64,000 nt of DNA from Isurus oxyrinchus (Eukaryota). A program made the position numbers and the translations under genes. Below are positions 25,801 to 57,582 of the stretch, piece by piece (position 1 is the stretch's first letter; each line of letters opens with the position of its first letter). The notes under the pieces are model-generated. The model did no database searches, was not told the DNA's origin, and saw only the letters and a program-made list of their open reading frames with translations. The DNA is taken from contig JANJGN010000102.1 in NCBI GenBank assembly GCA_026770705.1, forward strand, positions 186,001 to 250,000, read 5' to 3'.

Positions 25801-28375
25801 GCCTCCTAATGGCTATCACCCGCAACTGCACCTTGACAGTGCACATAGCAAAAATATCTCTGCTCCTCGGAGCCATCCAGTGACAGTAGCCGCAGTTACG
25901 CCGTGATGGTTGACATAGGAAAAAAAGCTCTGCTCCACCCATGGCCGATGACAGGTCAGGTGAGTGGTCAAGAATGTGGCAGATGGAATACAACGTGGCA
26001 AAGCGTGAAGTTATCCACTTTGGTCAGAAAAATAAAAAGCAGAGTATTTTTTGAATGGTGGGAGACTGGGGAATTTCGGTACTCAGCGGGGTCTGGGTGT
26101 CTTTGTACATGAATCACAGAAAGTTAACATGCAGGTACAACAAGCAATTAGGAAGGCAAATGGTATGTTAGCCTTTATTGCAAAGGGATTGGAGTATAAG
26201 AGTAGGGAAGTCTTGCTGCAATTATACAGTGAGACCACCCTTGGAGTACTGTGCGCAGTTGTGGTCTCCTAATCTAAGGAAGGACATACTTGCCCTAGAG
26301 TGAGTGCAAGAAAGATTCGCTGGACTGATTCCTGGGATGCGGTGATTGTCCTATGAGGAGAGGTTGAGTGGAATGGATTGATATTCTCTGGAGAAGAATG
26401 TGAGATTGAAATGTTTAGGGTATCGGTTTTAGAGAGGGTTTGACAGGGTCGATGCTGAGAGGCTGTTTCGTTCCCCCGTCCCGGCTGGAGAGTCTAGAAC
26501 ACAGGGGGAGTCACAGTGTCAGGATAAAGGGGCGGCCATTTTGGACTGGGACGAGGAGGAATTTCTTCACTCCGAGAGGGCTGTAAATCCACAGAATTCC
26601 TCGATCCCAGAGGACGCTCAGTCGTCGAGTATGTCCGAGGCGGAGATCGAGCGGCAGGGGCGGGAAAGTGGAGTCGAGGTAGTAGGTCAGCCGCGATCGT
26701 ATTGGACGGCGGAGCAGGCTCGAGGGGCCGAATGGCCTCCTCCTGTCCCTGGGTCTTACAGTTGACAGCAAGACTGAATCAGCAAGTTTGACGTAGCCGT
26801 TTACAGTGGTAAAGGAAGACAATGCGGACCAAGGGTAGTGACCGAAGGTGGGGTCGGCGGACAGGAGTTGAGGCGGAGGGTTTTTGAAATGACACGCAGA
26901 AAAATGAGGTGGCTGAAAATGGGGGAAGACCCCTTGTCTGAAACTTACTTGAGTTTACGGCTCAGGACTTGACTCCAGCTTCCAGGAGCGGCACACAAAT
27001 CGACTGCCCTGCATACCCCTGGCGGGAGAAACATTTAATCTGTGCACTCGAAACTACAGCGTGAACTGTTTCTGTTAAAGAGTCAGAAGACCGAAGGAAA
27101 ACAAAATGTGTCGCTTCCTCCGCCCGCGCCCCTTGCTTTTCCAGCAGACAGCGCCGCATCCTGCCCCGCTGTGATTCTACGCGGGATCTTCCTTTTCCTG
27201 GCGGCCCTTCCCACCTCGAAAGCGCCCGCCTTGACCACCAGGTCCACTTGGGTGGGGTGGGGTGGGGGAAGGGGTTCACCCCCACCGAATGCCCTCCTGT
27301 CCCGTGCCAGCGTGGGCGTTTCCTCACGCAAAGCCACTCCAACACCGCCCCAACCCCTCCCATCTCCACTGGGGCGGTGAGCAGAAGGCTATTCGACTAC
27401 AACAGCCCAGACTTTGTGAACTGTCCCGAGTTCACAGGGACAACATCAAACTAAATTTGTGGCCGTTTTGGCACAGGAAGGGGGGGGTGGGGGCGTTCTG
27501 CCCTTTGAATCTGTGCTGGCTCTCTCAATCAAGCAATCTAGTCCCATTTCCCACCCTCCTCCCCGTCCCCCTCAGCTCTCTCCCCGTAGCCCTGCAAGTT
27601 TGGTTCCCTCAAGTGCTCGCCCGCTTTCTTTTTGAAACTGTCCACCGTCTCCGCCACCCTCGTGGGCAGCGAGTTCCAGGTCGTTACCTCTCGCTGTGTG
27701 TAAAAAAGAAAAAGTTCTCTCTCACATTCCCTCCACCACCTTACCCAAAACCTTACATCTGCGTTCCCCACTGGTCCTTGAGAACGGCTTTCCCTTGTCT
27801 ACCTTACCCAAACCTGTCCTAATCTTCCACGCCTCTATCAAATCTCCTTTGCTTCCCCCAGCTTCTCCAACCTAACCCTGGAGCCAAAGACGTCCTCCCC
27901 GCCCCCGTCTCTGGAAACCGTTCTGGTAAATCTCCCCCTGCACCCTCTCGCATCCTTCCTCAGGTGTGGAGACCAGAATTGGACGCTGTACTCTCTCACC
28001 AGAGCTTCACAAAAGTTTCATCCTAGCTTCTGAAGAGCAGTCACCTTCGTTGGACTCGAAACGTTAGCTGTTTCTCCCTCTCCACAGAGGCTGCTGAGTT
28101 TTTCTCCTGGCGCTTACTGTTTGTATTTCAGAATAACAACCACCGCACCCCCCCCAAGCTTTTGTACACAATATCTCGACATAAGAAGTTCAAGGCCCCA
28201 TGTGCTCTGGTGAGTGCGGAGTTTGCCTTGGTTTCTCTAATAGAGATGCGTTACCCTGAAAAAGGTTATACTCTTCGTCCAGCTGCAGCAACTTAAAGGC
28301 GCTCCTCGCTCTCCATCCCTCCTCTTTCGCCAGGCGATAGTAGATGTCGCGTTTATCCTTCGAGGAACGTCCCAT
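1574..28375 (-). CDS. FTSJ1: FTSJ1 / TRM7-family tRNA (C32/G34) 2'-O-methyltransferase, complete CDS of 1062 nt (353 aa): join(28375-28255, 27018-26949, 25379-25277, 24117-24039, 22157-22105, 21119-21066, 19513-19411, 18644-18561, 4744-4641, 1864-1574)
   Basis: All introns are GT-AG with compatible phases. The protein starts [33 protein letters not shown]. It has the SAM-binding [13 protein letters not shown] motif, [22 protein letters not shown], and the K-D-K-E tetrad (AFK, CDGAPD, FVAK, SSIEAF). Confidence 0.97.
2030..4145. repeat. GC-rich minisatellite, ~31-34 bp unit (gcgtggcgctgcgggagggtcagtgtggagggg), in the last FTSJ1 intron
   Basis: Direct tandem repeats visible in the sequence, with unit length varying in the G run. 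Confidence 0.95.
4641..4744 (-). CDS. FTSJ1: FTSJ1 coding exon 9 (104 nt)
   Basis: [35 protein letters not shown]; ctttccccag| ... |gtgggg. Confidence 0.97.
4780..18150 (-). mobile_element. L2-clade LINE 3' portion, split by a ~12.7 kb internal minisatellite
   Basis: The reverse strand at 17850-17945 encodes a degenerate VLADLHWLPV...FKxLIL.FKS.GL. The segment at 4900-5140 encodes the following RSS...AFS...WNSLP...SFKTxLKTxL. These are contiguous parts of the L2 ORF2 C-terminus. Confidence 0.85.
5140..17850. repeat. ~12.7 kb G-rich minisatellite, ~38 bp unit (ggaggaggttacagagatagggagggttgtaggggct), with higher-order duplications
   Basis: Continuous tandem array; rare unit variants recur at fixed offsets. 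Confidence 0.98.
18561..18644 (-). CDS. FTSJ1: FTSJ1 coding exon 8 (84 nt)
   Basis: [28 protein letters not shown]; ttttctcccgcag| ... |gtaagg. Confidence 0.97.
19411..19513 (-). CDS. FTSJ1: FTSJ1 coding exon 7 (103 nt)
   Basis: [34 protein letters not shown]; ccaacag| ... |gtaagt. Confidence 0.97.
20165..20625. repeat. CpG-rich ~30 bp tandem repeat (cagcgccgagggagcgccgcactgtcgga-like), SINE-derived
   Basis: Tandem units related to those at 40880-41035 (opposite strand) and to the single copy at 50716-50750. Confidence 0.8.
21066..21119 (-). CDS. FTSJ1: FTSJ1 coding exon 6 (54 nt)
   Basis: [18 protein letters not shown]; ctcgcag| ... |gtacgc. Confidence 0.97.
21370..21830 (+). mobile_element. 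CR1-type LINE 3' fragment
   Basis: [25 protein letters not shown]...WNSLPQE.VE, and a CR1-like 3' UTR. Confidence 0.8.
22105..22157 (-). CDS. FTSJ1: FTSJ1 coding exon 5 (53 nt)
   Basis: [18 protein letters not shown]; ttccag| ... |gtaagt. Confidence 0.97.
22229..23870. repeat. 69-bp tandem repeat (~24 copies)
   Basis: Unit accgtccccatcaaacactcccaggacaggtacagcacggggttagatacagagtaaagctccctctac; gives a 23-aa periodicity in the ORF track. Confidence 0.97.
24039..24117 (-). CDS. FTSJ1: FTSJ1 coding exon 4 (79 nt)
   Basis: [26 protein letters not shown]; cttgtag| ... |gtacga. Confidence 0.97.
24230..24985 (-). mobile_element. CR1-type LINE 3' fragment
   Basis: [16 protein letters not shown]...[22 protein letters not shown] and [12 protein letters not shown]. 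Confidence 0.85.
25277..25379 (-). CDS. FTSJ1: FTSJ1 coding exon 3 (103 nt)
   Basis: [34 protein letters not shown]; cccccag| ... |gtaacc. Confidence 0.97.
25540..25925. repeat. 71-bp tandem repeat (~5.5 copies, decaying toward the 3' end)
   Basis: The core gacggtttacatagc recurs at 25551, 25622, 25693, 25764, 25835 and 25906. Confidence 0.9.
25955..26750 (+). mobile_element. CR1-type LINE fragment
   Basis: [32 protein letters not shown], followed by a CR1 3' end. Confidence 0.85.
26949..27018 (-). CDS. FTSJ1: FTSJ1 coding exon 2 (70 nt)
   Basis: [23 protein letters not shown]; ctcccgccag| ... |gtaagt. Confidence 0.97.
28255..28375 (-). CDS. FTSJ1: FTSJ1 coding exon 1 (121 nt; acceptor 13 nt upstream of the ATG, exon starts at 28388)
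   Basis: [40 protein letters not shown](G); donor G|gtaacg; upstream acceptor ccctttcag. Confidence 0.97.
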
Positions 28376-28688
28376 CTTTACTCAGGAACTGAAAGGGACA
28401 GGTCACGGCATTAGCACGATGACGACAGGTTTTGCATCACAGGCCCACCGCAGCCCTGTCTGCCGCTTTCTAGCCCAATCATCGAACCACTCTAACGCCT
28501 TCCGCAGCCCCTTATAGGATCATAGACAATGTGCAGCACAGGAGGAGGCTACTCGGCCCATCTTGTCTGTGCCAGCTGGAAAAGAACCGTCCAGCTGAAT
28601 CGCACCCTTAGTTCCCTCGAGTGCAATTTTTAGATGCAATGGGGGTTCCTGCCTCCACCACCCTGTCAGACGGAGAGTTCTGGACCCT

Positions 28689-28931
28689 GCCAGTGCCCAT
28701 ATCACCACCCAGTGCCCATAACCCCATCCAATGCCCACCATCCCCATCCAGTGCTCATATCCCCATTCAATGCCCACCATCCCCATCCAGTGCCCAAAGC
28801 CCCATCCACTGCCCGCCATCCCCATCCGGTGCTCATAACCCCATCCAATGCCCATCATCCCCCATCCAGTGCCAATCTCCCATCCAATGTCCATCCCCAG
28901 CCTGTGCCCACCATCCCCATCCAGTGCCCAT
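28689..28931. repeat. ~18-19 bp tandem repeat (ccagtgcccaccatccccat), reverse complement of the 31095-32675 array, inside a CR1 fragment
   Basis: Tandem units visible; flanked by CR1 minus-strand sequence on both sides. Confidence 0.85.
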
Positions 28932-29224
28932 CAAAAATAACTTCATTCCCCCTGTCCCCACCCCTCCCCAATCCCCAATCCTTCTATTATTTACTTTAAA
29001 TCTATGCGCGCTGCTGATTTTTCTGCTAAGAGGAAATAGATCCTTCCAATCCACGCTTTCCAAGGCCCCTTAGAATTTTATAAACCTCGACTAAATCACC
29101 CCTCAGCCTCCTCTGTGCCAAGGAAAACAACTCTAGCCTACCTAATTTTTCCTCTTCAATAAACCTCCCCATTCCTCCCAATATCCTCAAAAAATCTCTG
29201 CACCAGAGACTGGGGAGGTTACCA

Positions 29225-29990
29225 TTGAACAGAAACTGAACTGGGCCCAGCCATATAAATACTGTGGCTACAAGAGCAGGTCAGAGGCTGGGAATCCTGC
29301 GGAGAGTAACTCACCTCCCGACTCCACCATCTACAAGGCACAAGTCAGGAGTGTGATGGGATACTCCCCACTTGCCTGGATGAGTGCGGCTCCCACAACA
29401 CTCAAGAAGCTCGACACCGTCCAGGACAAAGCAGCCCCAGCTTGATCGGCACCCCATCCACAAACATTCACTCCCTCCACCACCGACGCACAGGGGCAGC
29501 AGTGTGTGTGTACCATCGACAAGATGCACTGCAGCAACTCGCCAAGGCTCCTTCGACAGCGCCGCCCAAACCCACGACCTCTCCCATCTATAAGGACAAG
29601 GGCAGCAGACACATGGGGAACACCACCACCTGGAAGTTCCCCTCCGAGCCCCACACACACCATCCCGACTTGGAAATATATCAGCCGTTCCTTCACTGTC
29701 GCTGGGTCAAAATCCTGGAACCCCTCTTCCTAACAGCGCGGTGGGTGTACCTACACCACACGGACACAATCCTGGAACTCCCTCCCTAACAGCACGGTGG
29801 GTGTACCTACACCACACGGACACAATCCTGGAACTCCCTCCCTAACAGCGCGGTGGGTGTACCTACCCTACACCACACGGGGACTGCAGCGGCTCAAGAA
29901 GGCAGTTCACCACCACCTTCTCAAGGGGCAATTAGGGATAGGCAATAAACGCTGGCCCAGCCAGCGACGCCCACATCCCATGAAAGAATA
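29225..29990 (+). mobile_element. LINE 3' end (RT C-terminal region) sharing its tail with the local SINE family
   Basis: Degenerate QRLGILRRV...TIYKAQVRSVMxYSPLAW...LDTVQDKA...SLHHRRT, ending in gggcaattagggataggcaataaacgctggcc...catcccatgaa. Confidence 0.75.
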
Positions 29991-30589
29991 ATGTAACAGC
30001 AACCACGAAACTATCATCGATTGTTGTTAAAAACCCATCTGGTTCACTAATGCCCTTCAGGGAAGGAAATCTGCTGTCCTTACCCGGTCTGGCCTACATG
30101 TGACCCCAGATACCCGGCAATGGGAGCGGGGTGACCCTTACCTACCCTCTAAAGTGGCCCCAGCAAGCTACTCAGTTCAAGGGGCAATTAGGGATGGGCA
30201 ACAAATGCCGGGCTGGCCAGCGGTGCCCACATCCCATGAAAGGTTAATCTAAAAAAGCCCCTCCCTTGTGCGGTCACACCCTTCGAAGCCAGAGAAGCGC
30301 AGTACGTTAGCTGCAGGTCCAACGAGTGTTTTATACGGTTTGTAGCGCAACCTCCCCCTTGCTCCTTCCATCCTGCGCCTTGACCCATGAAGGAAACCGC
30401 CAATGGGCATGTGCCCCCTGACCACCTTCATGTACCTCCCTGCTTCCTTCTTCCTCACCCAGCTTTTACAAATAAAAATAAAAATCATTGCCCCTGAAGC
30501 CTTAACCCCATCTCCCCCAGCCCAGGTGCTGCCTGAGCTGCTGAGTGCTCCCTGCATGAAACTATCCTGAATTGAGTGAAAAAAGCATG

Positions 30590-31090
30590 CTCCTCTACCT
30601 AGACCAGTCAGCCATTTTGATCCAATGCCCCTCAGCCTCCCTGTCCGCCCGCCCCCTTTCTCTGTTGCCCAATCAGCGGCGCCCCGCCCCGCAAGGAGGC
30701 CCCCGGTTTTGCCAGGCGTCTGATGCGCGCCTGAGTGAAATTGCGACCTGAGCCCTCTAAATGTCCGGGAGAGGGACTTTTTTGAAAATCACCTTGAAGA
30801 TGATTTTAATTTTTTTTTAAAAAAGCCGTCTTAAAAATCCAGCAATTTTTTTTGTTGGTTTTTGGCTTCTTAAGGTTTGCTTTGCTTTTGCTGCCCTGTG
30901 CGTGGGGATGGGGGCTGGGGGTTGCAGTACCACCTCTGTCCAGCGGGAGAGGCAGGGAGCGCTATAGAGCACAGGCGCGCGACGCCCGCGGCGGTTGGTG
31001 CCTCCTCGCCACCAGCTCGCGCTCAGTTCAAACGGCCGGCGGCGCGAGGGCGACCGTTAGGCTCCTACAATCAAAATGGTGGCGGGAGGA
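30590..31090 (-). promoter_or_regulatory. CpG-rich probable FTSJ1 promoter / non-coding first exon region
   Basis: Dense CpG; CCAAT at 30669; GC box ccccgcccc at 30682; YY1-type CAAAATGGC on the minus strand at 30611-30619. Two candidate minus-strand donors (AG|gtagag at 30599, AAG|gtgatt at 30793). The first coding exon has an upstream acceptor, so a non-coding exon 1 is expected. Confidence 0.65.
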
Positions 31091-31094
31091 GCGG

Positions 31095-32675
31095 AGGATG
31101 GACACGGGATGGGATGGTGGACACTGGGGTGGGGACGTGGGCACTGGGTGAGGCTGGGCACTGGATGGGATGGTGGGCACTGGGTGAAGGTGGGCACTGG
31201 ATGGAATGATGGGCACTGGGTGAGGGTGGGCACTGGATGGGATGATGGGCACTGGGTGAGGGTGGGCACTTGGTGAAGGTGGGCACTGGATGGGATGGTG
31301 GGCACTGGATGGGATGGTGGGCACTGGGTGAGGCTGGGCACTGGATGGGATGGTGGGCATTGGGTGAGGGTGGGCACTGGATGGGATGATGGGCACTGGG
31401 TGAGGGTGGGCACTGGATGGGATGATGGGCACTGGATGGGATGGTGGGCACTGGATGGGATGGTGGGCACTTGGTGAAGGTGGGCACTGGATGGGATGGT
31501 GGGCATTGGGTGAGGGTGGGCACTGGATGGGATGGTGGGCACTGGGTGAGGCTGGGCACTGGATGGGATGGTGGGCATTGGGTGAGGGTGGGCACTGGAT
31601 GGGATGATGGGCACTGGGTGAGGGTGGGCACTGGATGGGATGATGGGCACTGGATGGGATGGTGGGCACTGGATGGGATGGTGGGCACTGGGTGAAGGTG
31701 GGCACTGGATGGGATGCTGGGCACTGGGTGAGGGTGGGCACTGGATGGGATGGTGGGCACTGGGTGAAGGTGGGCACTGGATGGGATGGTGGGCACTGGG
31801 TGAGGGTGGGCACTGGATGGGATGATGGGCACTGGATGGGATGGTGCGCACTGGGTGAAGGTGGGCACTGGATGGGATGGTGGGCACTGGGTGAGGGTGG
31901 GCACTGGATGGGATTATGGGCACTGGATGGGATGATGGGCACTGGATGGGATGATGGGCACTGGGTGAGGGTGGGCACTGGATGCGATGGTGGGCACTGG
32001 GTGAGGGTGGGCACTGGATGGGATGGTGGGCACTGGATGGGATGATGGGCACTGGGTGAGGGTGGGCACTGGATGGGATGATGGGCACTGGATGGGATGA
32101 TGGGCACTGGGTGAGGGTGGGCACTGGATGGGATGATGGGCACTGGATGGGATGGTGGGCACTGGATGGAATGGTGGGCACTGGGTGAGGGTGGGCACTG
32201 GATGGGTTGGTGGGCACTGGGTGAAGGTGGGCACTGGATGGGATGATGGGCACTGGGTGAGGGTGGGCACTGGATGGGATGGTGGGCACTGGGTGAGTGT
32301 GGGCACTGGATGGGATGGTGGGCACTGGATGGGATGGTGGGCACTGGGTGAAGGTGGGCACTGGATGGGATGGTGGGCACTGGGTGAGGGTGGGCACTGG
32401 ATGGGATGGTGGGCACTGGATGGGATGGTGGGCACTGGGTGAGGGTGGGCACTGGATGGGATGATGGGCACTGGGTGAGGGTGGGCACTGGATGGGATGA
32501 TGGGCACTGGGTGAGGGTGGGCACTGGATGGGATGATGGGCACTGGGTGAGGGTGGGCACTGGATGGGATGATGGGCTCTGGATGAGGGTGGGCACTGGA
32601 TGAGGGGCACTGGATGGGATGATGGGCATTGGGGGGTTGATGGGCACTGGATGCAGATGCACACTGGATGGGGAT
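31095..32675. repeat. 18-bp G-rich minisatellite (gggcactggatgggatggt / gggcactgggtgagggt alternating)
   Basis: Continuous tandem array of two interspersed unit types. Confidence 0.95.
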
Positions 32676-34179
32676 TTGAAGGAACAATCTCTTTTTTAAA
32701 ATATAAAAATGACCAAAATGAAGAAGGATTTTTCGAAGGCTTGCCCTAATTCTTTGCGGCAATTGGCATGGCCCTTTGGCATCTCCTGGGCCAAGCCTGA
32801 CCTTCCTTGCCAACTTCACCCTCTCCCCCTCGAAAACATTAAACCTCTCCAAGACTCCGACCGAGGCCAGTTTCTAGTAATTTGGTTTTCTCGGTGATGG
32901 TGACCATGACAACTATTCATCAGTTGTTTCCTTTTGGGAAGGATATCTGCCATTCTTACCCAGTCTTGCTTGCATATGACTCCAGACCTACATCAGTGTG
33001 TCCATGAAGAATGGGTGCCCTGATGTGAGGATCAGATGGGATCCCGACAAGAGCCCTGGCCTCCCTGTGGTTGCCTCCACCTCCTGTCACTTCTTCCTCT
33101 GAACCCACCCCAACCGGTGTTTGAGAAGAATGAGGTTTGTAGAAAGAATGAGAAAATGAATATAAACTAAATGAAGGTGGCAGTACAGGTCGAAAAAGCT
33201 ATTTTAAAAAGCGGGATTTATCAATGGAGATGCAGAATACATAAGTGAGGAAGTTCTGCTAAAACATTGGTTGGGCCCCAGCTGGAGTATTGAGTCCAAT
33301 TCCAAGCCCCGCACTTTAGAAAGGATGTCTTGGAGAGGTTGCTTGAGGGGAGATTTACCAGAATGGTTCCAGGATAATGTGGAGAGGCTGGAGAATCTGG
33401 GATTGTTCTCCTTAGAGAAGGTTAAGGGGGAGATTTACTCAAAGCGTTCAAAATCACGAGGAGTTCTGGTAGAGTAAATAAGGAGAAACTTTCGAATGGC
33501 AGGAGGGTGGGTAACCGGAGGGGATAAAGGTTGAAGAGAATTGGTAAAAGAATCAGAAGGAGAGATGAGGAGAATTTTTTACTTTACACAGCAAGTTGTT
33601 GTGATCTGGAAGGCACTGCCTGAAAGGGCAGTGGAAGCAGATTCAATGGAAATGCTCAAAAGGGGGAATTGGATAAATACTTAAAGGGGAAAAAATTGCA
33701 GGGCTGTGGTGGGGGGAGGGGAGAGCTTGTGGGTGGATGGGGGTGGAGATGTGCAGATCTTGTCTACAAAACCCTGCCTTCCTCAAATGTTGATGTCTTC
33801 CTATTTGATGTTGCTGATGTCCGTGTTTACACTGGGAACTGCCAATGTAAACATGTCACACTGTAATGACACCTCCCTGCCAGTGGCAGTGCTAGAGAGC
33901 CTCACATCACAGTACAAGAGAAACGCCCGTGCTCCAACCAGCTTCTACTTCTGCACTTCACGATAACTGTAAGTTTTGCGATTTTAATCGTTCAACTAAT
34001 ATTGTCAACAATTTTTGTGTTTAACCATTTATAGAATGATGGAATGAGTTTGGCAAAAGAATTGATTTATCTCTGTGAGCCCTGGTTCAATTATCTCTTG
34101 GCACATAATCCCACGTCTACTGAATATTTGCTTTACACTTCCATCAATGACCTTCACACATGTTCAGCCAACAAGAACA

Positions 34180-35850
34180 AATTGCATTAAAGTAACACCT
34201 TGAACATAACAAAGCATCTCAAGATGTTTCACAGGAATCTTCTCAATTTGGACACCCAGCCGAGTAAGAAGAAATTGAAACAGATGAGGTATGTTTCAGG
34301 GAGTATCTTAAAGGAGGAGAGAGCAAGAGGTGGAGAGGTTTACGGAGGGAATTCTAGAGCTTAGGGCCCCAGGCAGCTGAAGGCACGGCTGCCAATGGTG
34401 GAGCATTGGGAATCGGGGGATGCTCCAGAGGCTGGAATTGGAGGAGCGCAGAGATCTCGGAGGTTTGTAGGAGGTTACAGAGATAGGGTTGTAGGGGCTG
34501 GAGGAGGTTACAGAGATAGGGCTGTAGGGGCTGGAGGAGGTTACAGAGATAGGGTTGGGACTGTATGAGGCTGCAGAGATAGGGAGGATTGTAGGGTTTG
34601 GATGAGGTTACAGAGGTAGGCAGGGTTGTAGGTGCTGGAGGAGGTTACAGAAATAGGGAGGGGTGTAGGGGCTGGAGGAGATTACAGAGGTAGGGAGGGT
34701 TGTAGGGTTTGGATGAGGTTACAGAGGTAGGCAGCGTTGTAGGTGCTGGAGGAAGTTACAGAGATAGGGAGGGGTTTAGGAGCTGGAGGAGATTACAGAG
34801 GTAGGGAGGGTTGGGGCTGGAGGAGGCTACAGAGATAGGGAGGGTTGTAGGGGCTGGAGGAGGTTACAGAGATAGGGAGGGGTGTAGGGGCTGGAGGAGA
34901 TTACAGAGATAGGGAGGGGTGTAGCGGCTGGAGGAGGTTACAGAGATAGAGAGGGTTGTAGGGGCTGGTGGAGGTTACAGAGATAGGGAGGGTGTAGGGG
35001 CTGGAGGAGGTTACAGAGATAGAGAGGGTTGGGGCTGAAGGAGGCTACAGAGATAGGGAGGGTTGTAGGGTTTGGAGGAGGTTACAGGTAGGCAGGGTTG
35101 TAGGTGCTGGAGGAGGTTACAGAGATAGGGAGGGTTGAAGGGGCTGGTGGAGGTTACAGAGATGGGGTTGTAGGGGGTGGAGGAGGTTACAGAGATAGGG
35201 AGGGGAGTAGGGGCTGGAGGAGATTACAGAGATAGGGAGGGGAGTAGGGGCTGGAGGAGATTACAGAGATAGGGAGGGGAGTAGGGGCTGGAGGAGGTTA
35301 CAGAGATAGGGAGGGTTGTAGGGCTGGAGGAGGTTACAGAGATAGGGAGGGTTGTAGGGGCTGGAGGAGGTTACAGAGATAGAGAGGGTTGTAGGAGCTG
35401 GAGGAGGTTACAGAGATAGGGAGGGGTGTAGGGGCTGGCGGAGGTTACAGAGATAGGGAGGGGTGTAGGGGCTGGAGGAGGTTACAGAGATAGGGGAGGG
35501 GTGTAGGGGGCTGGAGGAGGTTACAGAGATAGGGAGGGTTGTAGGGGCTGGAGGAGGTTACAGAGATAGGGAGGGTTGTAGGAGCTGGAGGAGGTTACAG
35601 AGATAGAGAGGGAGAGTCAGGAGGGATTTGAAAACGAGAATGAGAATTAAAAATTGAGGTGTTGCTTAACCAGGAGCCAGTGTGGGTCAGCGAGAACAGC
35701 AAGGGGGATGATGGGTGAACGGAACTTGGTGTGAGTTGGGACATGGAGGCAGCAGAGTTTTGGAGGAGCTGAAGTTTATGGGGGTGGGAGGATGGTCAGG
35801 ACAGTGTTGGAATAGTCACGTCAAGAGGTAAAAGAGGCACAGAAGAGGGA
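34180..35850 (-). mobile_element. L2 LINE 3' portion with a ~1.15 kb internal 38-bp minisatellite (34465-35610)
   Basis: Same flanks and repeat unit as the element at 4780-18150. Confidence 0.85.
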
Positions 35851-35864
35851 TTTTTTAGGATGAT

Positions 35865-36300
35865 GGTGGCATCATGGTCATGTCACTGGACTAATAATCC
35901 AGAGGCCCAGGCTAAATGGGTTCAAATCCTACCACAACAGCTGGTGAAATTTAAATTCAGTTAATTAGTTTAATTACTTAATTAGTTAGTTTCATTAATG
36001 GGGACTATGATCTATCATCAATTGTAAAAAATCCAGGGGGAGGCAGTAGCTAATGCTCTGGGGACCTAGGGTTCAGTTTGCACCACAGCAGATGGTGAAA
36101 TTTGAATCTAATAAAAACCTGGTTCACTAATACCCTTTAGGGAAGTAAATCTGCCATCCTTACCCGGTCTAGCCTACATGTGACTCCAGACCCACAGCAA
36201 CGTGGTTGACTCTTAACTGCCCCTCTGCAGACAATTAGGGATGGGCAACAAATGCTGGCCTTGCCAGAGATGCCCACATCCCTTGAAAGAATAAAACAAT
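35865..36300 (+). mobile_element. tRNA-derived SINE(s), apparently nested
   Basis: B-box-like gggttcaaatcc; family body catgtgactccagacccacagcaa and tail gggatgggcaacaaatgctggcc. Other copies lie near 19770-20160, 30000-30250, 41720-42115, 55730-56070 and 63090-63365. Confidence 0.75.
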
Positions 36301-37379
36301 TAGCAGGGGGTGCCTGTGAACAAGATCTCTTGGTTTTGCCTGTTTGGTTTCTTGGTTCCTCATTGAGTGAACTTTATTTAATTATTTTTAAAAATCTTCT
36401 ACCTACTTTATTTTCAAATGACGCAGGATCAAAAAGACTGAATCTGTATGATTGGGAGGTTTCTTTCATTCTCTGTTCCTCCTTACACCACACATCTGGA
36501 GCGATAGAAGCTGACAAGAATTGTTTCTTGTGTAAAGGCTTTTCATCATGTGGCCTGCATTTTAAAATACGACAGAAACCTGTAAGTAAAATGGCTGCCA
36601 CACATGCCTACCCAAGAACAGTGCACACACACTGTCTCACTCTCTCCTTGTGTATTCCTTTCTGGAATGTGAAACTGAAGATCTTAACAGATAGGAGGCG
36701 GAGTAGACCATTCAGCCCCTTGAGCCTACTCTGCCATTCAATACGTTGACCTGCTGCCTCAATCCTGCCCTCTCCCCATATCACTTAATTCCCTGAGAGA
36801 TCAAAAATCAAACAATCTCAGTCTTCAAAATATTCAACGATGGAGCATCAGGGATAGGAAATTCCAAAGATTTCACTCTCTGCGTGAAGGTGTTTCTCCT
36901 CTTCTCAGTCCGAAATAATTAATTCCTTACCTTGAGACTGTGCCCCCGTATTTTAGATGCCCCGACCAGCAGAAACAACTCTCAGCGTCCACTCTGTCAA
37001 ATCCCTTCAGAATCTCATATGTTTCAAAGCAATTGTCTCTCATTCTTCTAAACTACAGAGAAGCAATTGTCTCTCATTCTTCTAAACTACAGGGAATATA
37101 GACCCAATTTATTCAGCCTCTCATCATAGGACAGCCCTCTCATCCCAGGGACCAATCTAGTGAGCCTTCGCTGTTCCACCTCCAATGCAAGAATATCCTT
37201 CCTTAAATATGGAATATCCCAGGTGTGGTCTCACCAAAACCCTGTACAACTGTAGCAAGACTTTTCTATTCTTGTACTCCCTTGCAACTAAGGCAAACAT
37301 GCCTTTGCTGTAGCTGCATGCTAACTTTCTGTGCTCCTCATACGAGTACACCCAAGTCTCACTAATCATCGCATTTAAA

Positions 37380-40501: not shown

Positions 40502-40564
40502 TGTGATGGAAAATGCCATGTTTACCTCAACCTGGTCTCCATGCTGTTAATTGAGAAGAAGAAA

Positions 40565-45729: not shown

Positions 45730-45848
45730 TCACCCAGCTGAATTTCCCAACTCTCTAAGCTGAGAGATGCCAGTGAAAGCACTGACATATCAGAAGATAA
45801 TCAGCAGAGGCAAGATGACGTAATTAGAAGAAAGTGTACTGTCCTCCT
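45730..45848 (-). pseudogene. Possible degenerate connecting-peptide/TM exon of the alpha-chain gene (tentative)
   Basis: Good acceptor cttcttcattgcag; the phase-1 reading gives EEDSTLSSNYVILPLLIIF*YVSAFTGISQLRELGNSAG*. It matches the class II alpha TM glycine pattern only weakly and could be chance. Confidence 0.25.
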
Positions 45849-46149
45849 CTGCAATGAAGAAGTGACTGGGTTGTGTTGTTGTGGTGTTTAAACGGTCAAC
45901 CTCTGAATCACAGAATGGTTACAGCACAGCAGGAGGTTATTCAGCCCATCGTGCCCGTGCTGGCCCTCCAATGCACAGTTTACCCAGTGCCATTCCTTGA
46001 CCTTCTCTCTGTAACCCTGCACATTCTTCCTTTCCAGATAGAAGATTAATTCCTCTTAAACGCATGGATTGAACCTGCCTTCACCACACTCTCAGCCAGC
46101 GCATTCCAAAGCTTATCGTGCCCTGTGTGAGAATTATAAATCCTTTATC

Positions 46150-46930: not shown

Positions 46931-47409
46931 GTCTACCTTATATGTATTTATTAGGAATCTCTTTGTTTGTTGGGGTAGAAAATAGTAGCCATATATTGTC
47001 TCCAGATATTCGCATTTCAGTGCAGAATCTGGGTCAGCTCTTCTCCAGAGGCAAACATGTACCTATTCATTCATTGGGCCAGAAATTCCCTTGTATCTTT
47101 AATTACACGCAGAACTTGTAGATGCATGACAGAGCCAAGCTATTGCCTATGTAAGTCAGGTGTGAAATGGTTTGTTCTTCACTGTCTATCTGCCTGAATT
47201 GCGATCCTGTCTGCCGTTTTCTACAGGATTAGTATAATAAAGTTACATCAATTCTTCATTTGCCTGCTGCCCAAATTCAAACTATGCCAAGGGGAAGTAA
47301 TCCCAAATAATAGTACAGTTCAAACATAGAAGCTCCAAAGCAAAGTACTACAAGCCTGAACTGTGAGATAAAAACAGAAAATGGTGGAGATGTTCCGTAG
47401 GTCACGCCT

Positions 47410-49360
47410 AATAGAAACAGAAGGTGGCCGCTCAGCCCGTTGAGTTGGTTCCACCACCATTCAATGGAATCTTGGCTGATCTGTGATCTAATTCTCTATG
47501 CCTTTACCCCATATCCCTTAACACCATTGCACAACAAAACTCTATCAATCTCACATCTTTAAAATTGGCAGTCAACCCAGCATCAATTGTCATTTGCGAA
47601 AAGAGTTCCAAGCCCCACCACCCTTTGTGTGTAGAAATGTTTCCTCACTTCTCTCCTGAAAAGTCTGCCTCTCATTTTTAGACTTTGCCCCCTAGCCCCA
47701 GATGCTCCCAACCAGCAGAAATAATTTATCTCTCTCGACCCTTTGGAAGCGTTGTTGCAACTGTACAGGACATTGGCGAGACCGCAGCTGGACACAGTTT
47801 TGGTCCCCTTACTTGAGGAAGGATGTAGTTGCATTGTAAGCAGTTCAGAGGAGGTTCACTAGATTGATTCCAGAGGTGCGAGGCTTGTCTTATGAGGAGA
47901 GATTGAGCAGTTTAGGCCTACACTCGCTAGAGTTTAGAAGGATGAGAGGAGATCTAATTGAGGTTTTTAAGATGCTAAAGGGGATAGACAAACTAGACAT
48001 GGAGCAGATGTTTCCCCTTGTGGGGCATTCTAGAACGAGAGGCCATGGCTTAAGCGAAGGGGTGGTAGATTTAAATCAGAGATGAGGAGGAATTACTTTT
48101 CTCAAAGGGTGGTGAATCTGTGGAATTCACTACCTTAGAGTGCGGTAGATGCCGGGACGCTGAATATATTTAAGGACGAGATAGACAGATTTTTAATTAG
48201 TAATGGGTTGAAAGGTTATGGGGAGAGGGCGGAAAATTGGAGTTGAGGCCGAAATGAGATCAGCCTTGTATTGAATGGCAGGGCAGGCTCAAGGGGCTGA
48301 ATTGCCTACTCCTGCTCCTAGTCCTCATGTTCTAATGACCCAGCAGTTCCCCTTAATATCCTGAAAACTTTGATCAAACCTCCCCCTTAACCTTCTAAAT
48401 TTCAGAGATCTCCTCATAATTCAACCCTTGGAGTCCAGGGATCATTCTGGTAAATCTGTACTGAACTCCCTCCAAGGTCAATATATCCATCTTAAGGTGT
48501 GATGCCCAGAACTGCTCACAGTGACTCCAGGTGTGGTCTAACCAGGGCTTTGTGTAACTGAAACATGACTCCTACCCCCTTGTATTCTTGCCCTTGAGGT
48601 AGAAAGGCCTGCATTCTATTAGCTTTTTAAATTATTTTCTCTATTTGTTCAAGACATTTTAATGATCTCTGCCCCAAGTTTCTCTCTGGACCTTTCCACC
48701 ATATGTAAAGTCCCCTGGTTTCTCCTTTTTAAATCCAAAGTGGATGACCTCACATTTGCCGAGATTGAACTCCACTGGCTTCAACCACCAATATCTCTTT
48801 ATGACTTTGTGCTTCTGTGTACACTGCTTGCAATCCCACCTATCCATGTATCACCAATAAGTTTGGATATGTGTTTTTCTATCTCATTATCTAAATCGTT
48901 AATAAATAACGTGAATAGCTGAGGCCCCAACTCAGATTCTTTTGGGACACCATGAGTCAAATCCTGTCAATTCAGAATTCCTGCTCATTGTCCCTATCCT
49001 CTGATTCCTGGCGTTCAGGCAACTTCATAACCGGCGCAAAAATTTGCCTTCAAGCCATGAGCTTTAATTCTAGTTAGCAGTCTCTGAGAGGGAGTTTACC
49101 AAATGCCTTCGGGAAGTCCATATAAATTACACCCATAAACATTCCCATGTCCATTCCTTTAATCGCCTCTTCAAAAATTCCAGCAGGTTCGCCAGGCACA
49201 ACCTACCCTTTGCAAATCCATCCTGACTCTCTGATCAGCTGAAAATGTTTGAAGTGTTCAATCACTTCATCCTGTAAAGCAGACTCCAGTAAGTTGATGA
49301 CAACAGAGGTCAGGCCAATTGGGCTATCATTCCCTGGTTCCCCTCTCTCATCTTTCTTAA
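47410..49360 (-). mobile_element. CR1 LINE (minus strand) with a nested plus-strand CR1 at ~47750-48330
   Basis: Minus-strand CR1 RT and 3' sequence on both sides; the insert reads [30 protein letters not shown]. Confidence 0.8.
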
Positions 49361-49450
49361 GTGGAGAGAGAAACAGAGTTAACGTTTCAGGTCAAAATGT
49401 CTAAACTGGAAATATTCAGGTTTTCAGGTAACAGGTTTTAAGAAAATATA

Positions 49451-50076
49451 GGGCAGAATTTTTCTGTCGGCGAGCTGGGGCGGGGCCCGCTTGCCGATGC
49501 GGGATGACGTCAGGGGGAACCCCCAACATCATCCAGCCCCATTTAAATCTTCAGGAAGACGGGGGGACAGGACGATCAGCTGTCCACCTGCCAACCTGTC
49601 AGTGGCCAATTGAGGCCATTGACAGGGTAGTTAAATCAATTAAAGGCGCTGCCCGTCCAACCTTATGGCTGGCGGGCAGGCCAGGAGCCCCAGTGGGCTT
49701 CTGAAAAAACATGAAACCTCATCCACTGGCGGGATGAGATTTCATGTCGGTTTTAAAAATCTTTAATAAAGTTTTGGTGATACTTATTAACATGTCCCAT
49801 CTTGTGTGATATTGTCACATGAGGGGGACATGTTAATAATTTTTCTACCTTTCTATTTTTACACTTTCAAAAACTTTCAGTGCTCTCCTTGAGGCAGCAC
49901 TTAGTCTCAGGGAGATGTGCGCTTTTTCACGCACATGCGCGAAAGTGTGCACTCTGACAGTTGGGGAATTCCCCCCCCAATTAAAATGGCGGCGGGGCCC
50001 GTTTCAGCAGCAGCAATTGGCTGCCTGCCGCTGAGCTGGTGGGGCCCGCCCGCCCATCAAGGGCAAAATTCCAACC
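49451..50076. mobile_element. Non-autonomous DNA transposon (MITE-like)
   Basis: Imperfect TIRs gggcagaatttt ... aaaattccaacc; closely similar to the copy at 60119-61171. Confidence 0.75.
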
Positions 50077-50809
50077 ACAGAATACCAAATTGCAAATAGT
50101 AGGAGTAAAAGTCAGTTGCTCACAATGTAGTGGCTTCCACACTGGGGGAACCAAATGCAGATCAGATGACCACCCTGTGGAACACCTTTGTTCAGTCCAC
50201 AAGTGTGACTCTGAGCTTCCTTTCGCCTGCCATCAGAATTCTGCACCCCCACTCCCACTTTGACCTTCCTGAACTAGGTCTTCTGGATTACTCTTCTTGC
50301 ATTTGAAAGTATCACACCTACAAAGATTATGTCACCTGTTCTACCCAATTGGCATAAGTACTCTTTACCTCTGAGGATTGTGAACATTCCATCCTTTAGT
50401 ATATTTAAGGCTGGAATAGGAAGTTTTTTGGTCTCTCAGGAGATCAAGGGATATGGGAAGCAGACTGGAGAGTGGAATTAAGGTACAAGATTCGCCATTA
50501 TCATATTGAATGGCAGAATAGGCTCAATGGGCTAAATGGTCGCCTCCTCTTATTTCTTATTTTCTTAGGAAGGCCATGGAAATTCCATGCTTGTGCTTTT
50601 AAAAGGGACAGAGCTGTCCAGGCACCACTCCACCATATTCCTAGCTTGCTTTCATCAAGTCCCAGGTGTTAGTTGTGTCTCAGTGGCAGCACTCTCGTGT
50701 CAGAGGGTTGTATGTCCAGTGTTGAGGGAGTGCTGCGCTATCGGAAGTGCCCTCTTTTGAAAGAGAAGTTAAACTGAAGCCCTTCTCCCCTTTCAGGTAC
50801 ATGTAAAAC

Positions 50810-51319
50810 AACTGGCATTTATATAGTGCATTTAATGTAGTCAAACATCGCCAAGGAGCTTCAATCAAAATTTGACCTCAAGCCACATGAGGAGACGTTA
50901 AGGACAGGTGACCAAAAACTTGGTAAAACAGATCAGTTTTTAAGGAGTGTCTTAAAGGAGGAGCGAGCAGATTCCAGGGGAGGGAACTCCAGCGCCTAGG
51001 GCCCCAGGCAGCTGAAGGCACAGCCGCCAATGGTCGAGCGATGGGAATTTGGGGGATGATCAAGAGCTGGAATTGGATGAGTGCAAAGATCTCAGAGGGC
51101 TGTAGGGGCTGGAGGAGTTTAGAGATAGGGAGGGTTGGAGGGTCTGGGGGAGGTCACAGAGATGGGAGGGTTGTAGGGGCTGGAGGAGGTTACAGAGATA
51201 GGGAAGATTGTAGGGGCTGTAGGAGGTTACAGACATAGGGAGAGTTGCAGCAGCTGGAAGAAGTTACAGAGACGGAGAGTTGTATGCGTTCGAGAGGTTT
51301 ACAGCGATAGGGAGGGTTG
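50810..51319 (-). mobile_element. L2 LINE 3' end with ~5-6 copies of the 38-bp unit
   Basis: Same L2 tail as at 4780-5140; ends abruptly at an LTR. Confidence 0.8.
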
Positions 51320-53233
51320 TGTTGCATGTGCCTGCATTGTGATGTAAAGGTTCTCAGTAGAGCAATGGCTAATGTGAGACTGGAGAATATCACTACCCAC
51401 ACTATGATGTATAGAGTCACATGGTAATAGACTGAGAGAACAGTCTAGAGAGAAACTCTAGAAGCAACCCACCTGCATGAGACAGCACCATGCATGACAG
51501 TAACCTGGGATCTGTAAATAGTTAGCAGTTAAGAACTAAGGGTTCATGGTTAAATACAACAAGTCTCAAGATTTCATTGTTGAGCCACCACAGCTGGCGC
51601 CATTACACAACATGGTGACCAGCAGTGATAACACAACAAGACTGGCAGCAGTGGTTGCTTCTATAAGATGTCAAATCAGCGATGATATGAATGGTGGCAT
51701 TTTAAATGATGGACTCAGAACAGTATCCGTAGGTATGAAAACTAAATGCAGCTGTAGCCAGAATAGAGGGATGTTCACCAAAGAAGAAAACTTGAAGAAG
51801 CTATAGACCTACAGACTTAGAGGTTGAGGAATCCACCAGAGTGAGTGGAAGTCCATTGCAAGACCCCAAGTGATGCAGAGTAAAAAAGAAAAAACCTGGT
51901 TAAATTACAAAGACGGTGAGCAACACTACAATAAATTGCAAGACCCTGAGTAATGCTGAATCAAGATACTTAGTTAAATCACAAGGCAGTGTGCAGAACT
52001 ACAAAAATTGCAAGTCCCTGAGCGACCTAGGTTCAATGGGCCTGGTTTGTTCACAAAATGGTGAGCAAAAATACACAAAAGAAACTACTTACAAAATAGA
52101 ATAGGTGGCAGTCCCATGGCTCAGCATATCCATAGAGAAGCTGGAAGACAGCTGCAAGCTTAAGAAAAAACCTGCAGAAAAGAAACTTCAGAATAAAGAG
52201 AGAAAACTGCAGAGCACAGTTTAAAAAAAAAGAGTTTGCAGAGTTTTTAAAAAATTACTGCTGTTCTGAATATTTTTTTAAAATGGCAAGCAGAGCAAAT
52301 GGAAAGAAGCGCTGTAGCTTTAAGTTAACAAAAAAGCGTGCCTGTTGAAACACCCTAAGCACAAAGTTGAATGGATCTGCAGAGTTAAAAAAATTAAGTT
52401 TTCAGAAAGAATCACCCAGAAAAGAAATGCTGCTATTTTGAAGTTTTTAAAGTTTAGAAAAAGAAGGTCCACGATTGCTGGGGAGCTGATCAAAACCTGA
52501 AAGGTGTGGGTAGCTCACAACAAGGAAAACCGACAGCTGGAGACAGGCTATGGTGAAAAAAATTGGTTACTGCATTGACACACTTAAAGTGGCAACGGCA
52601 CTTAAAGCAGTAACTGCAAGCAAAAACAAACAGCCATGAGCTGAAAATTAGAAGAACCAGGCGCTTTTTGGTTAAGCAAATGGCAACACCAGACATAAGA
52701 GTGGTCTATCACACCCCCAATAAAGCGCTGAAGGGGACAAAAATCCCAGAGAGAAGGCAACATGAGATCCCAGAGAGAGAGTAACTCCCAATAAAGCGCT
52801 GAGGGCAACAAGAGATCCCAGAGAGAGGGCAACAAAAGACCCCAGAGCGAGGAAGCCAAATGTCCCCAGAGGGAGGGGAAGAAAAGACCCCAGAGCGAGA
52901 GAGACAGAAGTCCCCAGAGCAAGAAAGACGTAACCGCAAGATGGCTACCGACCATGCCAGTGCAATGAAATGCATGAGGAGAAGAGTTTAGCACATAAGA
53001 AAATGTCTGAGAAGCAGCCAAAAGGCTCAAAAACAGCATTTCTTGAAAATGCTGACACACTACCAAAACTGCAACAGCAGGCGGTGAAAAGTGCACAGAT
53101 GTCTGAGTGAAGGAAAGCTACCTGAGCTAACTCATAAGAAGCAAAATGTGCAAAAAGTAAATGAACCTTTTCTACAGGAAAATGTTCGCATCAGAGCTGT
53201 ACTGGAAGACTTGAAGCTTCAAGCTGAGTCAAT
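51320..53233 (+). mobile_element. Degenerate LTR element (5' LTR 51320-51612, PBS, internal region; 3' LTR missing)
   Basis: tgttg...caaca termini followed by tggtgacc; the internal 3' part is similar to 44660-44870 of the other LTR element. Confidence 0.65.
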
Positions 53234-53234
53234 G

Positions 53235-53503
53235 AGATAAAAACAAAAAACTGCGGATGCTGGAAATCCAAAACAAAATCAGAATTACCTGGAAAAACTC
53301 AGCAGGTCTGGCAGCATCGGCGGAGAAGAAAAGAGTTGACGTTTCGAGTCCTCATGACCCTTCGACAGAACTTGATTTCGAGTCCAAGAAAGAGTTGAAA
53401 TATAAGCTGGTTTAAGGTGTGTGTGTGGGGGGCGGAGAGATAGAGAGAGAGGGGGCGGGGGGTGTGTGGTTGTGTGGACAAACAAGCAGTGATAGAAGCA
53501 GAT
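53235..53503 (-). mobile_element. Penelope terminal fragment
   Basis: Near-identical to 37380-37614. Confidence 0.9.
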
Positions 53504-54043
53504 TTCTCTCTCTCTCTTTGGTAGTCCCTCAAAGCGGGACGGACACTTGCCATTGAACACATCTCGTTGCAAAAGGGCATGGAGTCTTTTAATGGGCCGA
53601 GGATGCAGCATTGCAGCTATTGCAAGGTGATCATCCGAATTAGAAAGATTTACGATTGTACAGTGTCTTAGAATGATCTGAGAGTGTTTAATATAGAGTG
53701 AATTATTTAAAGTGAAGCGAGTGTCAAAAGCAGCAGCCATTTTGCACTCAGGAAGCAGGGATGGGATAACAACAATTTATACAGCATGCTGATTGGTCGA
53801 CAAGTGAATTCTGGTTGGTGGAGGCGTTGCCATGGAGAATGCAGCATGGAACAGTTAACTGCCAAGCTTTGTTCAAATTCAAACTGGGCAGGTGGATTCT
53901 GATTGGTCAAGGCATTGCCCTGGTGAATGAACCAGGGAATGCCTTTTGTTTAGATGAACAAGGCACAATGTGTGGACATGCTCATTTTCAAACACATTCT
54001 TATTCTTGTCAAATGCAGTCCATGGTGACAACATCTAACATAC

Positions 54044-54325
54044 CTAATAAAACAGTAAGCGGTTTATCGAGACTCATATGATCTACTTGGCAGCTGTAGG
54101 TGTCTCCATTCTGTGGATCAATCCTGATGTATTTTAAGATGTTAAATATCCAGTCCGTCTCAACCATTAATTGTGATGAATTGACCGGCCCAGTGAATGA
54201 CCTCCCATTGATCAAGAAGATAATGTCAGTTTCGAAAGGGTAAAATTTTTCTGCGTAACAGAACAGAGTGTTTGACTCTCGTGGGGTGTAGTTTTCCTTG
54301 GTGTAAATGTGTACAACTGGCTTTT
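54044..54325 (-). CDS. WA: WA alpha2 Ig-C1 domain exon (282 nt, open frame), beta2-microglobulin-like
   Basis: KPVVHIYTKENYTPRESNTLFCYAEKFYPFETDIIFLINGRSFTGPVNSSQLMVETDWIFNILKYIRIDPQNGDTYSCQVDHMSLDKPLTVLL; C1-set motifs LxCxxxxFYP and YxCxVxH; donor G|gtatgt. Confidence 0.92.
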
Positions 54326-56589: not shown

Positions 56590-56862
56590 TGTGGATGATG
56601 CTTTTAGCATTTGTCAGCTTTATAATTTCTTCAGTGATGGTTTGCAGTCGAGTGTTGAACCCACGAGCTCTCTCTGTATAATAAGTCACTTCTTCTTGGC
56701 CCAGTTCCTTTATCCCATCTGTCACATTCCCATTTAAAACAAACATTTGTGCTCCATAATCATAGAACAAAAAGGGAATGGAATTTATATTGAAGGTGTC
56801 TACATTTCTTTTTGAATCCGGCGTATAGCTGTAGTACAACCTTGCAGAAACAGATTCAACTT
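56590..56862 (-). CDS. WA: WA alpha1 domain exon (273 nt, open frame)
   Basis: EVESVSARLYYSYTPDSKRNVDTFNINSIPFLFYDYGAQMFVLNGNVTDGIKELGQEEVTYYTERARGFNTRLQTITEEIIKLTNAKSIIH; ttttctctgtctag| ... |gtaagt. MHC-domain size, strand-then-helix pattern, no Cys. Confidence 0.85.
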
Positions 56863-57494
56863 CTAGACAGAGAAAACAGCAGGCAAATCACAAAATGAAA
56901 TTAGACATTTGCATTTATATCGCACCTTATCATGTCTCTCCAAAGCATGGCTAAAGCCTTCATGCATATGGCAGTGACTGTTTATTGTATAAATATATAT
57001 GGCAGCCATTTTGTACCCAGTTCGATCCCACAAACAGCAGTAAATAGAATGGCCAATTCATCCATTTTGTGGTCTTGTTGCATGAAGGAGGAATGTTAGC
57101 CAGTACATCAGAGGGCCTCCCTGTTCCATTTCCTCTGGTGCCATGGGATCTTTAGTATTGATCTGAACAAGTGAACAGCACCTGAACTTAACATTTGATC
57201 TTGTCAGCTCTGACAATGCGGCAACCCCTCAATGTTTGACTGTCGGCCTAAACTATGAACCCCAGTCAGGGTATGAGTCTTAAATCCACAACCTGTGACT
57301 GAGTGAAATCATTGTACAATTTACCCTCTGTAGATCTGAGACATCGCTGAGAGACTGAAGCACTCAACATACAGCAAGTCCGATTGTAAGCAAAGAACTA
57401 TTGTTAAAATGTTAGATTGGAACACTTTTTTGAAATAAATGTTTTAATAAATTCAAGTAAATTAACTCTAAGATTACAATCATGAGACTCTCAC

Positions 57495-57582
57495 CCGTGG
57501 AGGCTGAATTCAGCAGCTCATACTCAGTGAGATATAAACAGACAATGGGATAAGGTTACAAAACTAGAATTTTCATTCCCAT
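57495..57582 (-). pseudogene. WA: WA leader exon with a premature stop
   Basis: MGMKILVL*PYPIVCLYLTEYELLNSAST(E), 88 nt; donor G|gtgaga whose phase matches exon 2. Confidence 0.7.

Follow-up and report, generated by a model that had tools for sequence, protein, structure and literature searches.

The FTSJ1 edge of the elasmobranch W cluster in Isurus oxyrinchus, with a first alpha gene that is probably a pseudogene

A window of 64,000 nucleotides on contig JANJGN010000102.1 (scaffold C102) of Isurus oxyrinchus is probably the end, at FTSJ1, of the W-category MHC cluster already described in elasmobranchs, with a first alpha gene that is likely to be a pseudogene in this species. Since no membrane-anchor exon is found for this gene, WA, and TG stands at the splice acceptor of its alpha2 exon, it is, as judged from its sequence, most likely a pseudogene. 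The anchorless WA, which did not turn up in literature listings that exclude supplements and subscription journals, is the sole new point; the rest of the neighbourhood has already been published. The features concerned, in window positions, are:

1574..28375, minus strand: FTSJ1 (tRNA 2'-O-methyltransferase, Trm7 orthologue), 10-exon gene model, ATG at 28375
28255-28375, 26949-27018, 25277-25379, 24039-24117 and 22105-22157, minus strand: FTSJ1 coding exons 1-5
21066-21119, 19411-19513, 18561-18644, 4641-4744 and 1574-1864, minus strand: FTSJ1 coding exons 6-10
28376..54043, no strand: 25.7-kb interval from the FTSJ1 ATG to the WA alpha2 exon, about 60% interspersed or tandem repeats
37377..40373, minus strand: Penelope-like retroelement and its 3' end, with RVT_1 and GIY-YIG Pfam matches both just under cut-off
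53238..53503, minus strand: cut-off Penelope 3' end, its edge at 53499-53503 having 4-5 bp in common with the flank
54044..54325, minus strand: WA (DS5-like) alpha2 Ig-C1 exon, with Y8, F37, L55 and W61
56590..56862, minus strand: WA alpha1 exon, 90 of 91 residues identical to published white-shark WA DS5L
57891..57954, minus strand: WA signal-peptide exon with start codon at 57954, from tblastn with the catshark orthologue and a 57891-56862 joint in a close relative's RNA
59734..59815, plus strand: signal-peptide exon of WB (Nds5-like), the gene that stands head-to-head with WA
62298..62570, plus strand: WB beta1 exon, gene model

The W assignment rests on sequence, that is, on near identity to published white-shark sequences. 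Relative to white-shark WA DS5L (PMC8713811, Datasets S1-S3), alpha1 differs at a single residue and alpha2 at six, and WB beta1 differs from white-shark WB Nds5L at 3 of 91 residues. The preliminary description had enlisted the FTSJ1 linkage in support of the assignment; the assignment holds, and synteny is not needed for it. In Dataset S2 numbering, the WA alpha2 Ig domain has W61, the W-category alpha mark, together with Y8 and L55, and F37 replaces the Ig tryptophan (the category has F or L here). Position 57 is V in place of the category's F or Y; published DS5 sequences of white shark and houndshark have V here too, and V57 appears to be a trait of the DS5 subgroup that gives no ground for excluding WA. 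The signal, alpha1 and alpha2 exons of a class II-type layout were found and the CP/TM/CY exon was not; WA thus appears to be a W-category orthologue by descent, but an incomplete member. Its start had been placed at an ATG at 57582, wrongly: this ATG is intronic, since the spliced RNA of the relative joins 57891 to 56862 and sets the start at 57954. Two longer NCBI proteins (P0001 and P0002) that might have been taken for forms with an extra Ig domain are actually a DS10 ectodomain fused to DS5; DS10 has its own TM exon on this scaffold.

The published white-shark WA includes a CP/TM/CY region (PMC8713811), whereas here no match to such an exon follows alpha2 within 450 kb. Genome-wide, a 50-aa white-shark tail query gave no TM-exon match among five candidates scored, and a 29-nt exon-start pattern gave none at two mismatches; as a positive control, a 50-aa control TM exon was recovered. 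The TM motif is carried by 16 of 19 DS5-like relatives. In the close relative, RNA joins signal, alpha1 and alpha2 and then enters the start of the TM exon, a sequence with no placement anywhere in 41.5-61.4 kb of the window. A 1062-nt DNA contig of the same relative aligns over 341 nt and departs from the window at 53499, leaving at least 721 bp without a window counterpart. This departure falls at the edge of the cut-off Penelope 3' end, which at 53270-53503 is 92% alike to the 3' end of the element at 37377..40373, and the edge at 53499-53503 would be the site at which the CP/TM/CY exon was lost. The alpha2 acceptor, at 54327-54326, is TG where the relative's DNA has AG. The exons that are present are all open, with no stops or frameshifts. 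Following the split from the close relative, then, the CP/TM/CY exon may have been deleted and the acceptor mutated, with a deletion that ends at, or was caused by, the Penelope 3' end.

The partner gene is arranged head-to-head with WA, as in the white shark, the two ATGs (57954, minus strand; 59734, plus strand) lying 1780 bp apart. WB has the class II-type chain layout, its TM exon falling just outside the window: the beta2, TM and tail exons run to about 71.8 kb (window position) in an open frame, and its splice sites are canonical. It differs from the published white-shark WB (PMC8713811) at 7 of 292 modelled residues. It carries C36S and P145L at positions where C and P are found in all three relatives, P145L falling within the C1 'F-F-P' motif; beta2 has P57 and, in place of W61, S61, as in published Nds5L (most WB have G61). 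A W pair has been shown to form a surface heterodimer in the tiger salamander (PMC8713811), and the intact orthologue of the relatives would be expected to contribute to a membrane heterodimer of class II type whose domain interfaces are of class I type.

FTSJ1 itself is an ordinary intact FTSJ1/Trm7 orthologue, closer to these than to FTSJ3/Spb1 or MRM2. The model encodes 353 aa in an open frame, with GT-AG at every intron. In a PDB sequence search the top matches for exon 1 were human FTSJ1 (8y2o_B, E 8e-18) and yeast Trm7 (6jp6_B, E 2e-13), FTSJ3/Spb1 reaching only 1e-7; FtsJ Pfam matches on two exons both fell below cut-off. Exon 2, at one point suspected to be absent, is present at 26949-27018. 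A genome-wide search for the FtsJ family missed small FTSJ1 exons on C102 and is uninformative for copy number.

Both FTSJ1 and WA (exons within 54044-57954) are on the minus strand, as had been stated, and the assembly has no gap and no N between 28375 and 57954. The further statement that no recognisable host gene separates them is borne out by Pfam and tblastn scans, which detected only repeats. The stretch from 28.3 to 54.1 kb holds 281 stop-free frames of at least 45 aa, of which the 130 of at least 60 aa outside a tandem array at 31.0-32.9 kb were scanned with Pfam; three matched (the RT and the GIY-YIG domain of Penelope, and Cornifin in low-complexity sequence, below threshold), and no host gene was detected in these frames, though small or unusual exons could escape and genuine W alpha1 and beta1 exons were missed in the same scan. 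No further W exon was found in the interval by tblastn with W proteins. The RT and GIY-YIG domains of the Penelope-like element at 37377..40373 are divided between two frames. Within the 450 kb examined, 60% of the interval sequence is repeated elsewhere.

On the scaffold as a whole the order is WDR13, FTSJ1, WA-DS5/WB-Nds5, WA-DS10/WB-DS1, WB-DS3/WA-Nds3 (duplicated copies), TSR2, WNK and HUWE1, with markers in scaffold positions at:

C102:184.5 kb: WDR13, single exon found
C102:240-471 kb: W exons
C102:504 kb: TSR2
C102:587 kb: WNK
C102:820 kb: HUWE1-type DUF913

The Nds3 section contains near-identical duplicated segments spaced about 70 kb apart. No W exon was found off C102 among the 20 of 21 matches examined. 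Scaffold C21 carries beta2-microglobulin together with exons of class II-like and class I-like type; C102 is unplaced, so linkage between the two is possible.

The FTSJ1-W linkage is already published, in the supplement of Verissimo et al. (2023, PMC10751288). As listed in Suppl. Fig. S3 of that paper, FTSJ1 and WDR13 lie beside W genes in white shark (chromosome 35), catshark (21), sawfish (43) and lungfish (8), which answers the question of whether W genes occur near FTSJ1 in other lineages. The elasmobranch cluster listed there has WDR13, FTSJ1, TSR2, WNK3 and HUWE1 as flanks, in the listed order found here, with WDR13/FTSJ1 on one side and TSR2/WNK/HUWE1 on the other, and multicopy WA and WB. 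The published cluster is on another chromosome than the MHC, which is on chromosomes 19, 13 and 34 of white shark, catshark and sawfish respectively; in the present assembly the scaffold with beta2-microglobulin and class II is a different one from C102. Relative to the published cluster, the present locus adds a further lamniform, an FTSJ1-proximal WA lacking the TM exon, and the Nds3 duplicates. The chromosome 8 genes of lungfish (Fig. S3d), beside FTSJ1, WDR13 and PORCN, are outside the MHC; lungfish also has a second, MHC-linked W pair on chromosome 9, of which the matches examined in this shark show no counterpart off C102. The preliminary description had tentatively placed an FTSJ1-W link in bony fishes/coelacanth. 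This is right for lungfish but not for coelacanth, in which WA/WB are placed amid the MHC genes zbtb9, cuta, b3galt4, pfdn6, rgl2 and tapbp (Suppl. Fig. S4). Reedfish was rejected as support: its ftsj1 and the MHC share chromosome 1, but ftsj1 lies 61 Mb away from psmb8a in a different set of genes, and none of the neighbours that have a name is MHC-like, several of the next loci being unnamed. For mammals, PMC8713811 reports no W genes.

For elasmobranchs and lungfish, the published paper speaks of 'early translocations'. Because the linkage is common to shark and lungfish, its age is by parsimony that of the jawed-vertebrate ancestor, as the preliminary description had reasoned, and a W pair would have stood beside FTSJ1, alongside an MHC-linked pair, before cartilaginous and bony fishes split. 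A misjoin between FTSJ1 and WA deserves next to no credence. The interval is repeat-rich and spanned by no single public contig, but it is ungapped, the relative has matching single-copy pieces along 41.6-59.2 kb that diverge by about 2-3%, and W genes have these neighbours also in the three other elasmobranch assemblies and lungfish of the published figure.

The absence of an exon from the assembly is weak evidence alone, because the assembly is incomplete nearby: most of WDR13 is missing from the same scaffold, the one exon found being next to a 100-N gap at 262-361. Collapse at the Penelope repeat, or a variant confined to one individual of a species whose WA-DS5 is normal, is nevertheless an unlikely source of the missing TM exon. 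The junction is at a high-copy repeat, which crossing contigs enter by only 20-28 letters, below the 31-letter bridging bar, and the best DNA runs (X1 and X2) are a single sample, possibly the source of the assembly. However, short-read contigs from these runs pass 53499 unbranched and with no differences, at single-copy depth (11.7 in X1 and 13.5 in X2, where the alpha2 contig has 12.4 and 19.7), and a contig from another sample (X17, depth 2.2) also crosses without differences. The TG acceptor, moreover, is a lesion of its own that lies in unique DNA, and X1 and X2 show no alternative letter there. Alternatively WA might be alive but anchorless, using an in-frame cryptic acceptor at 54316 and running on into the intron as far as a stop codon 12 codons beyond alpha2, to give a secreted chain that pairs with membrane-bound WB. 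Three open exons, an intact signal peptide, two ATTAAA signals past alpha2 (53692 and 53593) and the TM exon and open frame of WB would all suit such a chain. It is nonetheless very unlikely: it has to accommodate two independent lesions, an acceptor 9 nt downstream that removes the first three alpha2 residues, and substitutions at near-invariant alpha2 positions. The five private residues of this copy include T172I (T in 19/19 relatives) and I145T (I in 18/19), although the excess over the two in the close relative is not significant. The partner itself carries P145L and C36S, and no transcript was seen. RNA-like runs X17 and X19 of this organism cover the WA exons barely or not at all; as the WB start is uncovered too, they were left out as evidence on WA expression.

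An expressed, secreted WA would matter more than a pseudogene, because beta2-microglobulin is proposed to have originated from a W alpha gene that lost its CP/TM/CY region, an anchor loss that the class II-first model needs. That an anchor-lost, secreted WA with an anchored WB is a living re-run of this event is, however, highly improbable. The linkage extends the published synteny by one species and lends support to an ancestral jawed vertebrate with two W loci, of which one lay in the MHC and the other next to FTSJ1, as published data already implied; the adjacency is likely to be positional inheritance, with no functional tie of tRNA methylation to W molecules. The anchorless WA most likely reflects the usual birth-and-death turnover of a non-classical MHC cluster, in which a W subgroup can be lost in one lineage yet transcribed in a close relative.

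FTSJ1 and the nearest W-category MHC alpha gene, WA-DS5, both lie on the minus strand, as the preliminary description held and as exon models confirm. The end point that it gave for WA, 57582, is an intronic ATG, since an RNA contig of a related organism, B, splices 57891 to 56862. FTSJ1 exon 1 has human FTSJ1 and yeast Trm7 as its best matches, and the beta gene, WB, starts on the plus strand 1780 bp from WA.

Features of the FTSJ1-WA region (window coordinates)
28375 (ATG) to 1574, minus strand: FTSJ1, 10 coding exons, all GT-AG, 353 aa, intact
53238-53503: truncated Penelope 3' end, entered by contigs of runs X1, X2 and X17
54044-54325, minus strand: WA alpha2 (exon model)
56590-56862, minus strand: WA alpha1 (exon model)
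57891-57954, minus strand: WA signal exon (exon model)

The W genes of the window differ very little from those published for white shark, which marks the animal as a lamniform close to that species. Set against the rows of Datasets S1-S2 in Okamura et al. 2021 (PMC8713811), alpha1 shares all but 1 of its 91 residues with white-shark WA DS5L, and alpha2 departs from that chain at 6; beta1 has 3 differences from WB Nds5L. Alpha2 of WA carries Y8, F37, L55 and W61, with V at position 57 as in the white-shark and houndshark DS5 rows (PMC8713811), and WB beta2 carries P57 and S61. These residue matches and diagnostic residues mean that the W assignment, as judged from sequence, is independent of synteny, and the support that FTSJ1 linkage had been expected to lend it is not required. 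The WB frame is open and its splice sites are canonical, yet it carries C36S and P145L.

Of scaffold C102 (1.84 Mb of a 4.98-Gb genome), positions 1-650000 were examined, within which the window occupies 186001-250000. From the FTSJ1 ATG to WA alpha2 there are 25.7 kb without any N, 60% of which recurs elsewhere in 450 kb; that the interval as a whole is a misjoin is most improbable. The proposed absence of a host gene from it holds for the 130 of 281 stop-free frames put through Pfam, where three matched, two of them a Penelope element and one low-complexity sequence, in a test that is not exhaustive because real alpha1 and beta1 exons escaped the same run. Most of one FTSJ1 intron is taken up by a tandem array (5142-17848), 12.7 kb long, in which a 37-bp unit recurs about 348 times, and other arrays lie at 2039-4145, 22228-23870, 31107-32653 and 34574-35612. 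FTSJ1 and WA are most likely neighbours by inheritance of position, and nothing points to a function in common.

WA-DS5 lacks an exon for the connecting peptide, transmembrane and cytoplasmic segments (CP/TM/CY). This segment is terminal in 16 of 19 DS5-like relatives, the other three being one partial model and two with short non-TM tails. Neither tblastn nor a motif scan of 450 kb turned it up, and a protein search and a 29-nt pattern found no copy in the assembly; a control TM exon of equal length was recovered, but as a self-match. RNA-like contigs of B (run X15) join signal, alpha1 and alpha2 and continue past 54044; the letters there encode the beginning of the known CP segment and match nothing in 41.5-61.4 kb. 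We consider it likely that this FTSJ1-proximal WA decayed in this lineage, which would have involved a deletion at the Penelope end and an acceptor mutation: the alpha2 acceptor (54327) is TG in the window versus AG in B. Alpha2 differs from B at 7 positions, 6 of them residue-changing; four alpha2 changes and one in alpha1 are private to this lineage, two at near-invariant sites, and are too few for a selection test.

An artefact of the assembly or the individual could also remove the TM exon, and most of neighbouring WDR13 is indeed absent from the assembly, a point against a pseudogene. A 1062-nt DNA contig of B tracks the window as far as 53499, beyond which it carries 721 unlike letters, and contigs of the window's own organism cross 53499 with 0 differences into Penelope (X1 to 53475, X2 to 53476, X17 to 53479). 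These extend 20-28 letters into the repeat, below the 31-letter bar for bridging, and X1 and X2 are a single sample, so the junction is support rather than proof; an artefact is unlikely. A secreted chain would suit WA exons without stops, an in-frame cryptic acceptor at 54316 and ATTAAA signals downstream of alpha2, all counterpoints to a pseudogene, and is decidedly improbable. Decay remains the favoured reading, and the lack of an anchor in WA is a minor new finding; no earlier report was found in the literature searched, and supplements or other journals could hold one.

In the cloudy-catshark and whale-shark DS5-like models (P0008, P0019), alpha2 is likewise followed by a short tail without a TM, which probably reflects modelling on draft assemblies and possibly independent anchor loss. 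NCBI models of basking and white shark (P0001, P0002) fuse WA-DS5, TM included, to a WA-DS10 ectodomain, a four-domain read-through across a WB gene in which the DS10-to-DS5 joint is predicted. The internal alpha1 acceptor (window 56718) of one model is used in B's RNA, spliced to the DS5 signal exon.

Left of FTSJ1 lie one WDR13 exon and exons of the OST-alpha, EBP, UBC and amino-acid-transporter families, together with what we take to be a PORCN-like exon, to which Pfam gave no match. The ubiquitin-conjugating-enzyme and OST-alpha-family genes are at G000:C102:117457-119785 and 172267-174163. A 100-N gap (window 262-361) stands just past the FTSJ1 3' end, where most of WDR13 belongs, and a stricter search found one WDR13 exon in the genome (sites: window 262-361, L059:4509-4760); the assembly is therefore incomplete beside FTSJ1. 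To the right follow WA-DS5/WB-Nds5, WA-DS10/WB-DS1, WB-DS3/WA-Nds3 (including duplicated, partly broken copies), TSR2, a WNK gene and HUWE1. Segments about 70 kb apart in G000:C102:346543-485501 are 98-99.6% identical and hold duplicates of WA-Nds3 and of WB remnants, the cause being either a duplication of recent date or a second haplotype kept in the assembly. The first WA-Nds3-like copy (G000:C102:321640-321925, 330456-330560) has an alpha2 frameshift and stop and another stop past the TM; the alpha2 exons of two later copies are open. An uninterrupted TSR2 domain match at G000:C12:9540329-9540565 probably derives by retroposition from the TSR2 on C102, which has introns. Scaffold C21 carries beta2-microglobulin, class II-like exons (called by W37 and W61) and class I-like exons (weak matches). 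The W locus is on C102 and the MHC markers on C21; C102 is unplaced, so in this assembly the two could still be linked.

The FTSJ1-W linkage is real and was previously known in sharks. As far as the text labels of its supplementary figures tell, Suppl. Fig. S3 of Verissimo et al. 2023 (PMC10751288) places WDR13, FTSJ1, WNK3 and HUWE1 on white shark chr35, WDR13, FTSJ1, TSR2, WNK3 and HUWE1 on catshark chr21, WNK3, TSR2, SIT1, FTSJ1 and WDR13 on sawfish chr43, and FTSJ1, WDR13 and PORCN on lungfish chr8. The same paper describes elasmobranch W genes as multicopy, syntenic and outside the MHC, with some lungfish W genes having the same neighbours. The suggestion that FTSJ1 lies near W genes in bony fishes or coelacanth is borne out for lungfish chr8 and fails for coelacanth, whose W pair, like a second lungfish pair, is given an MHC location (Fig. 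S4). Axolotl W genes are reported on chr1p, off the MHC (PMC12619710), none are reported found in newts (PMC12863176), and a 2026 preprint discusses the possibility that the X-equivalent region was anciently tied to the MHC. Since FTSJ1-linked W genes are common to elasmobranchs and lungfish (PMC10751288), the suggested dating is the parsimonious one: an FTSJ1-linked W locus would already have been present in the jawed-vertebrate ancestor.
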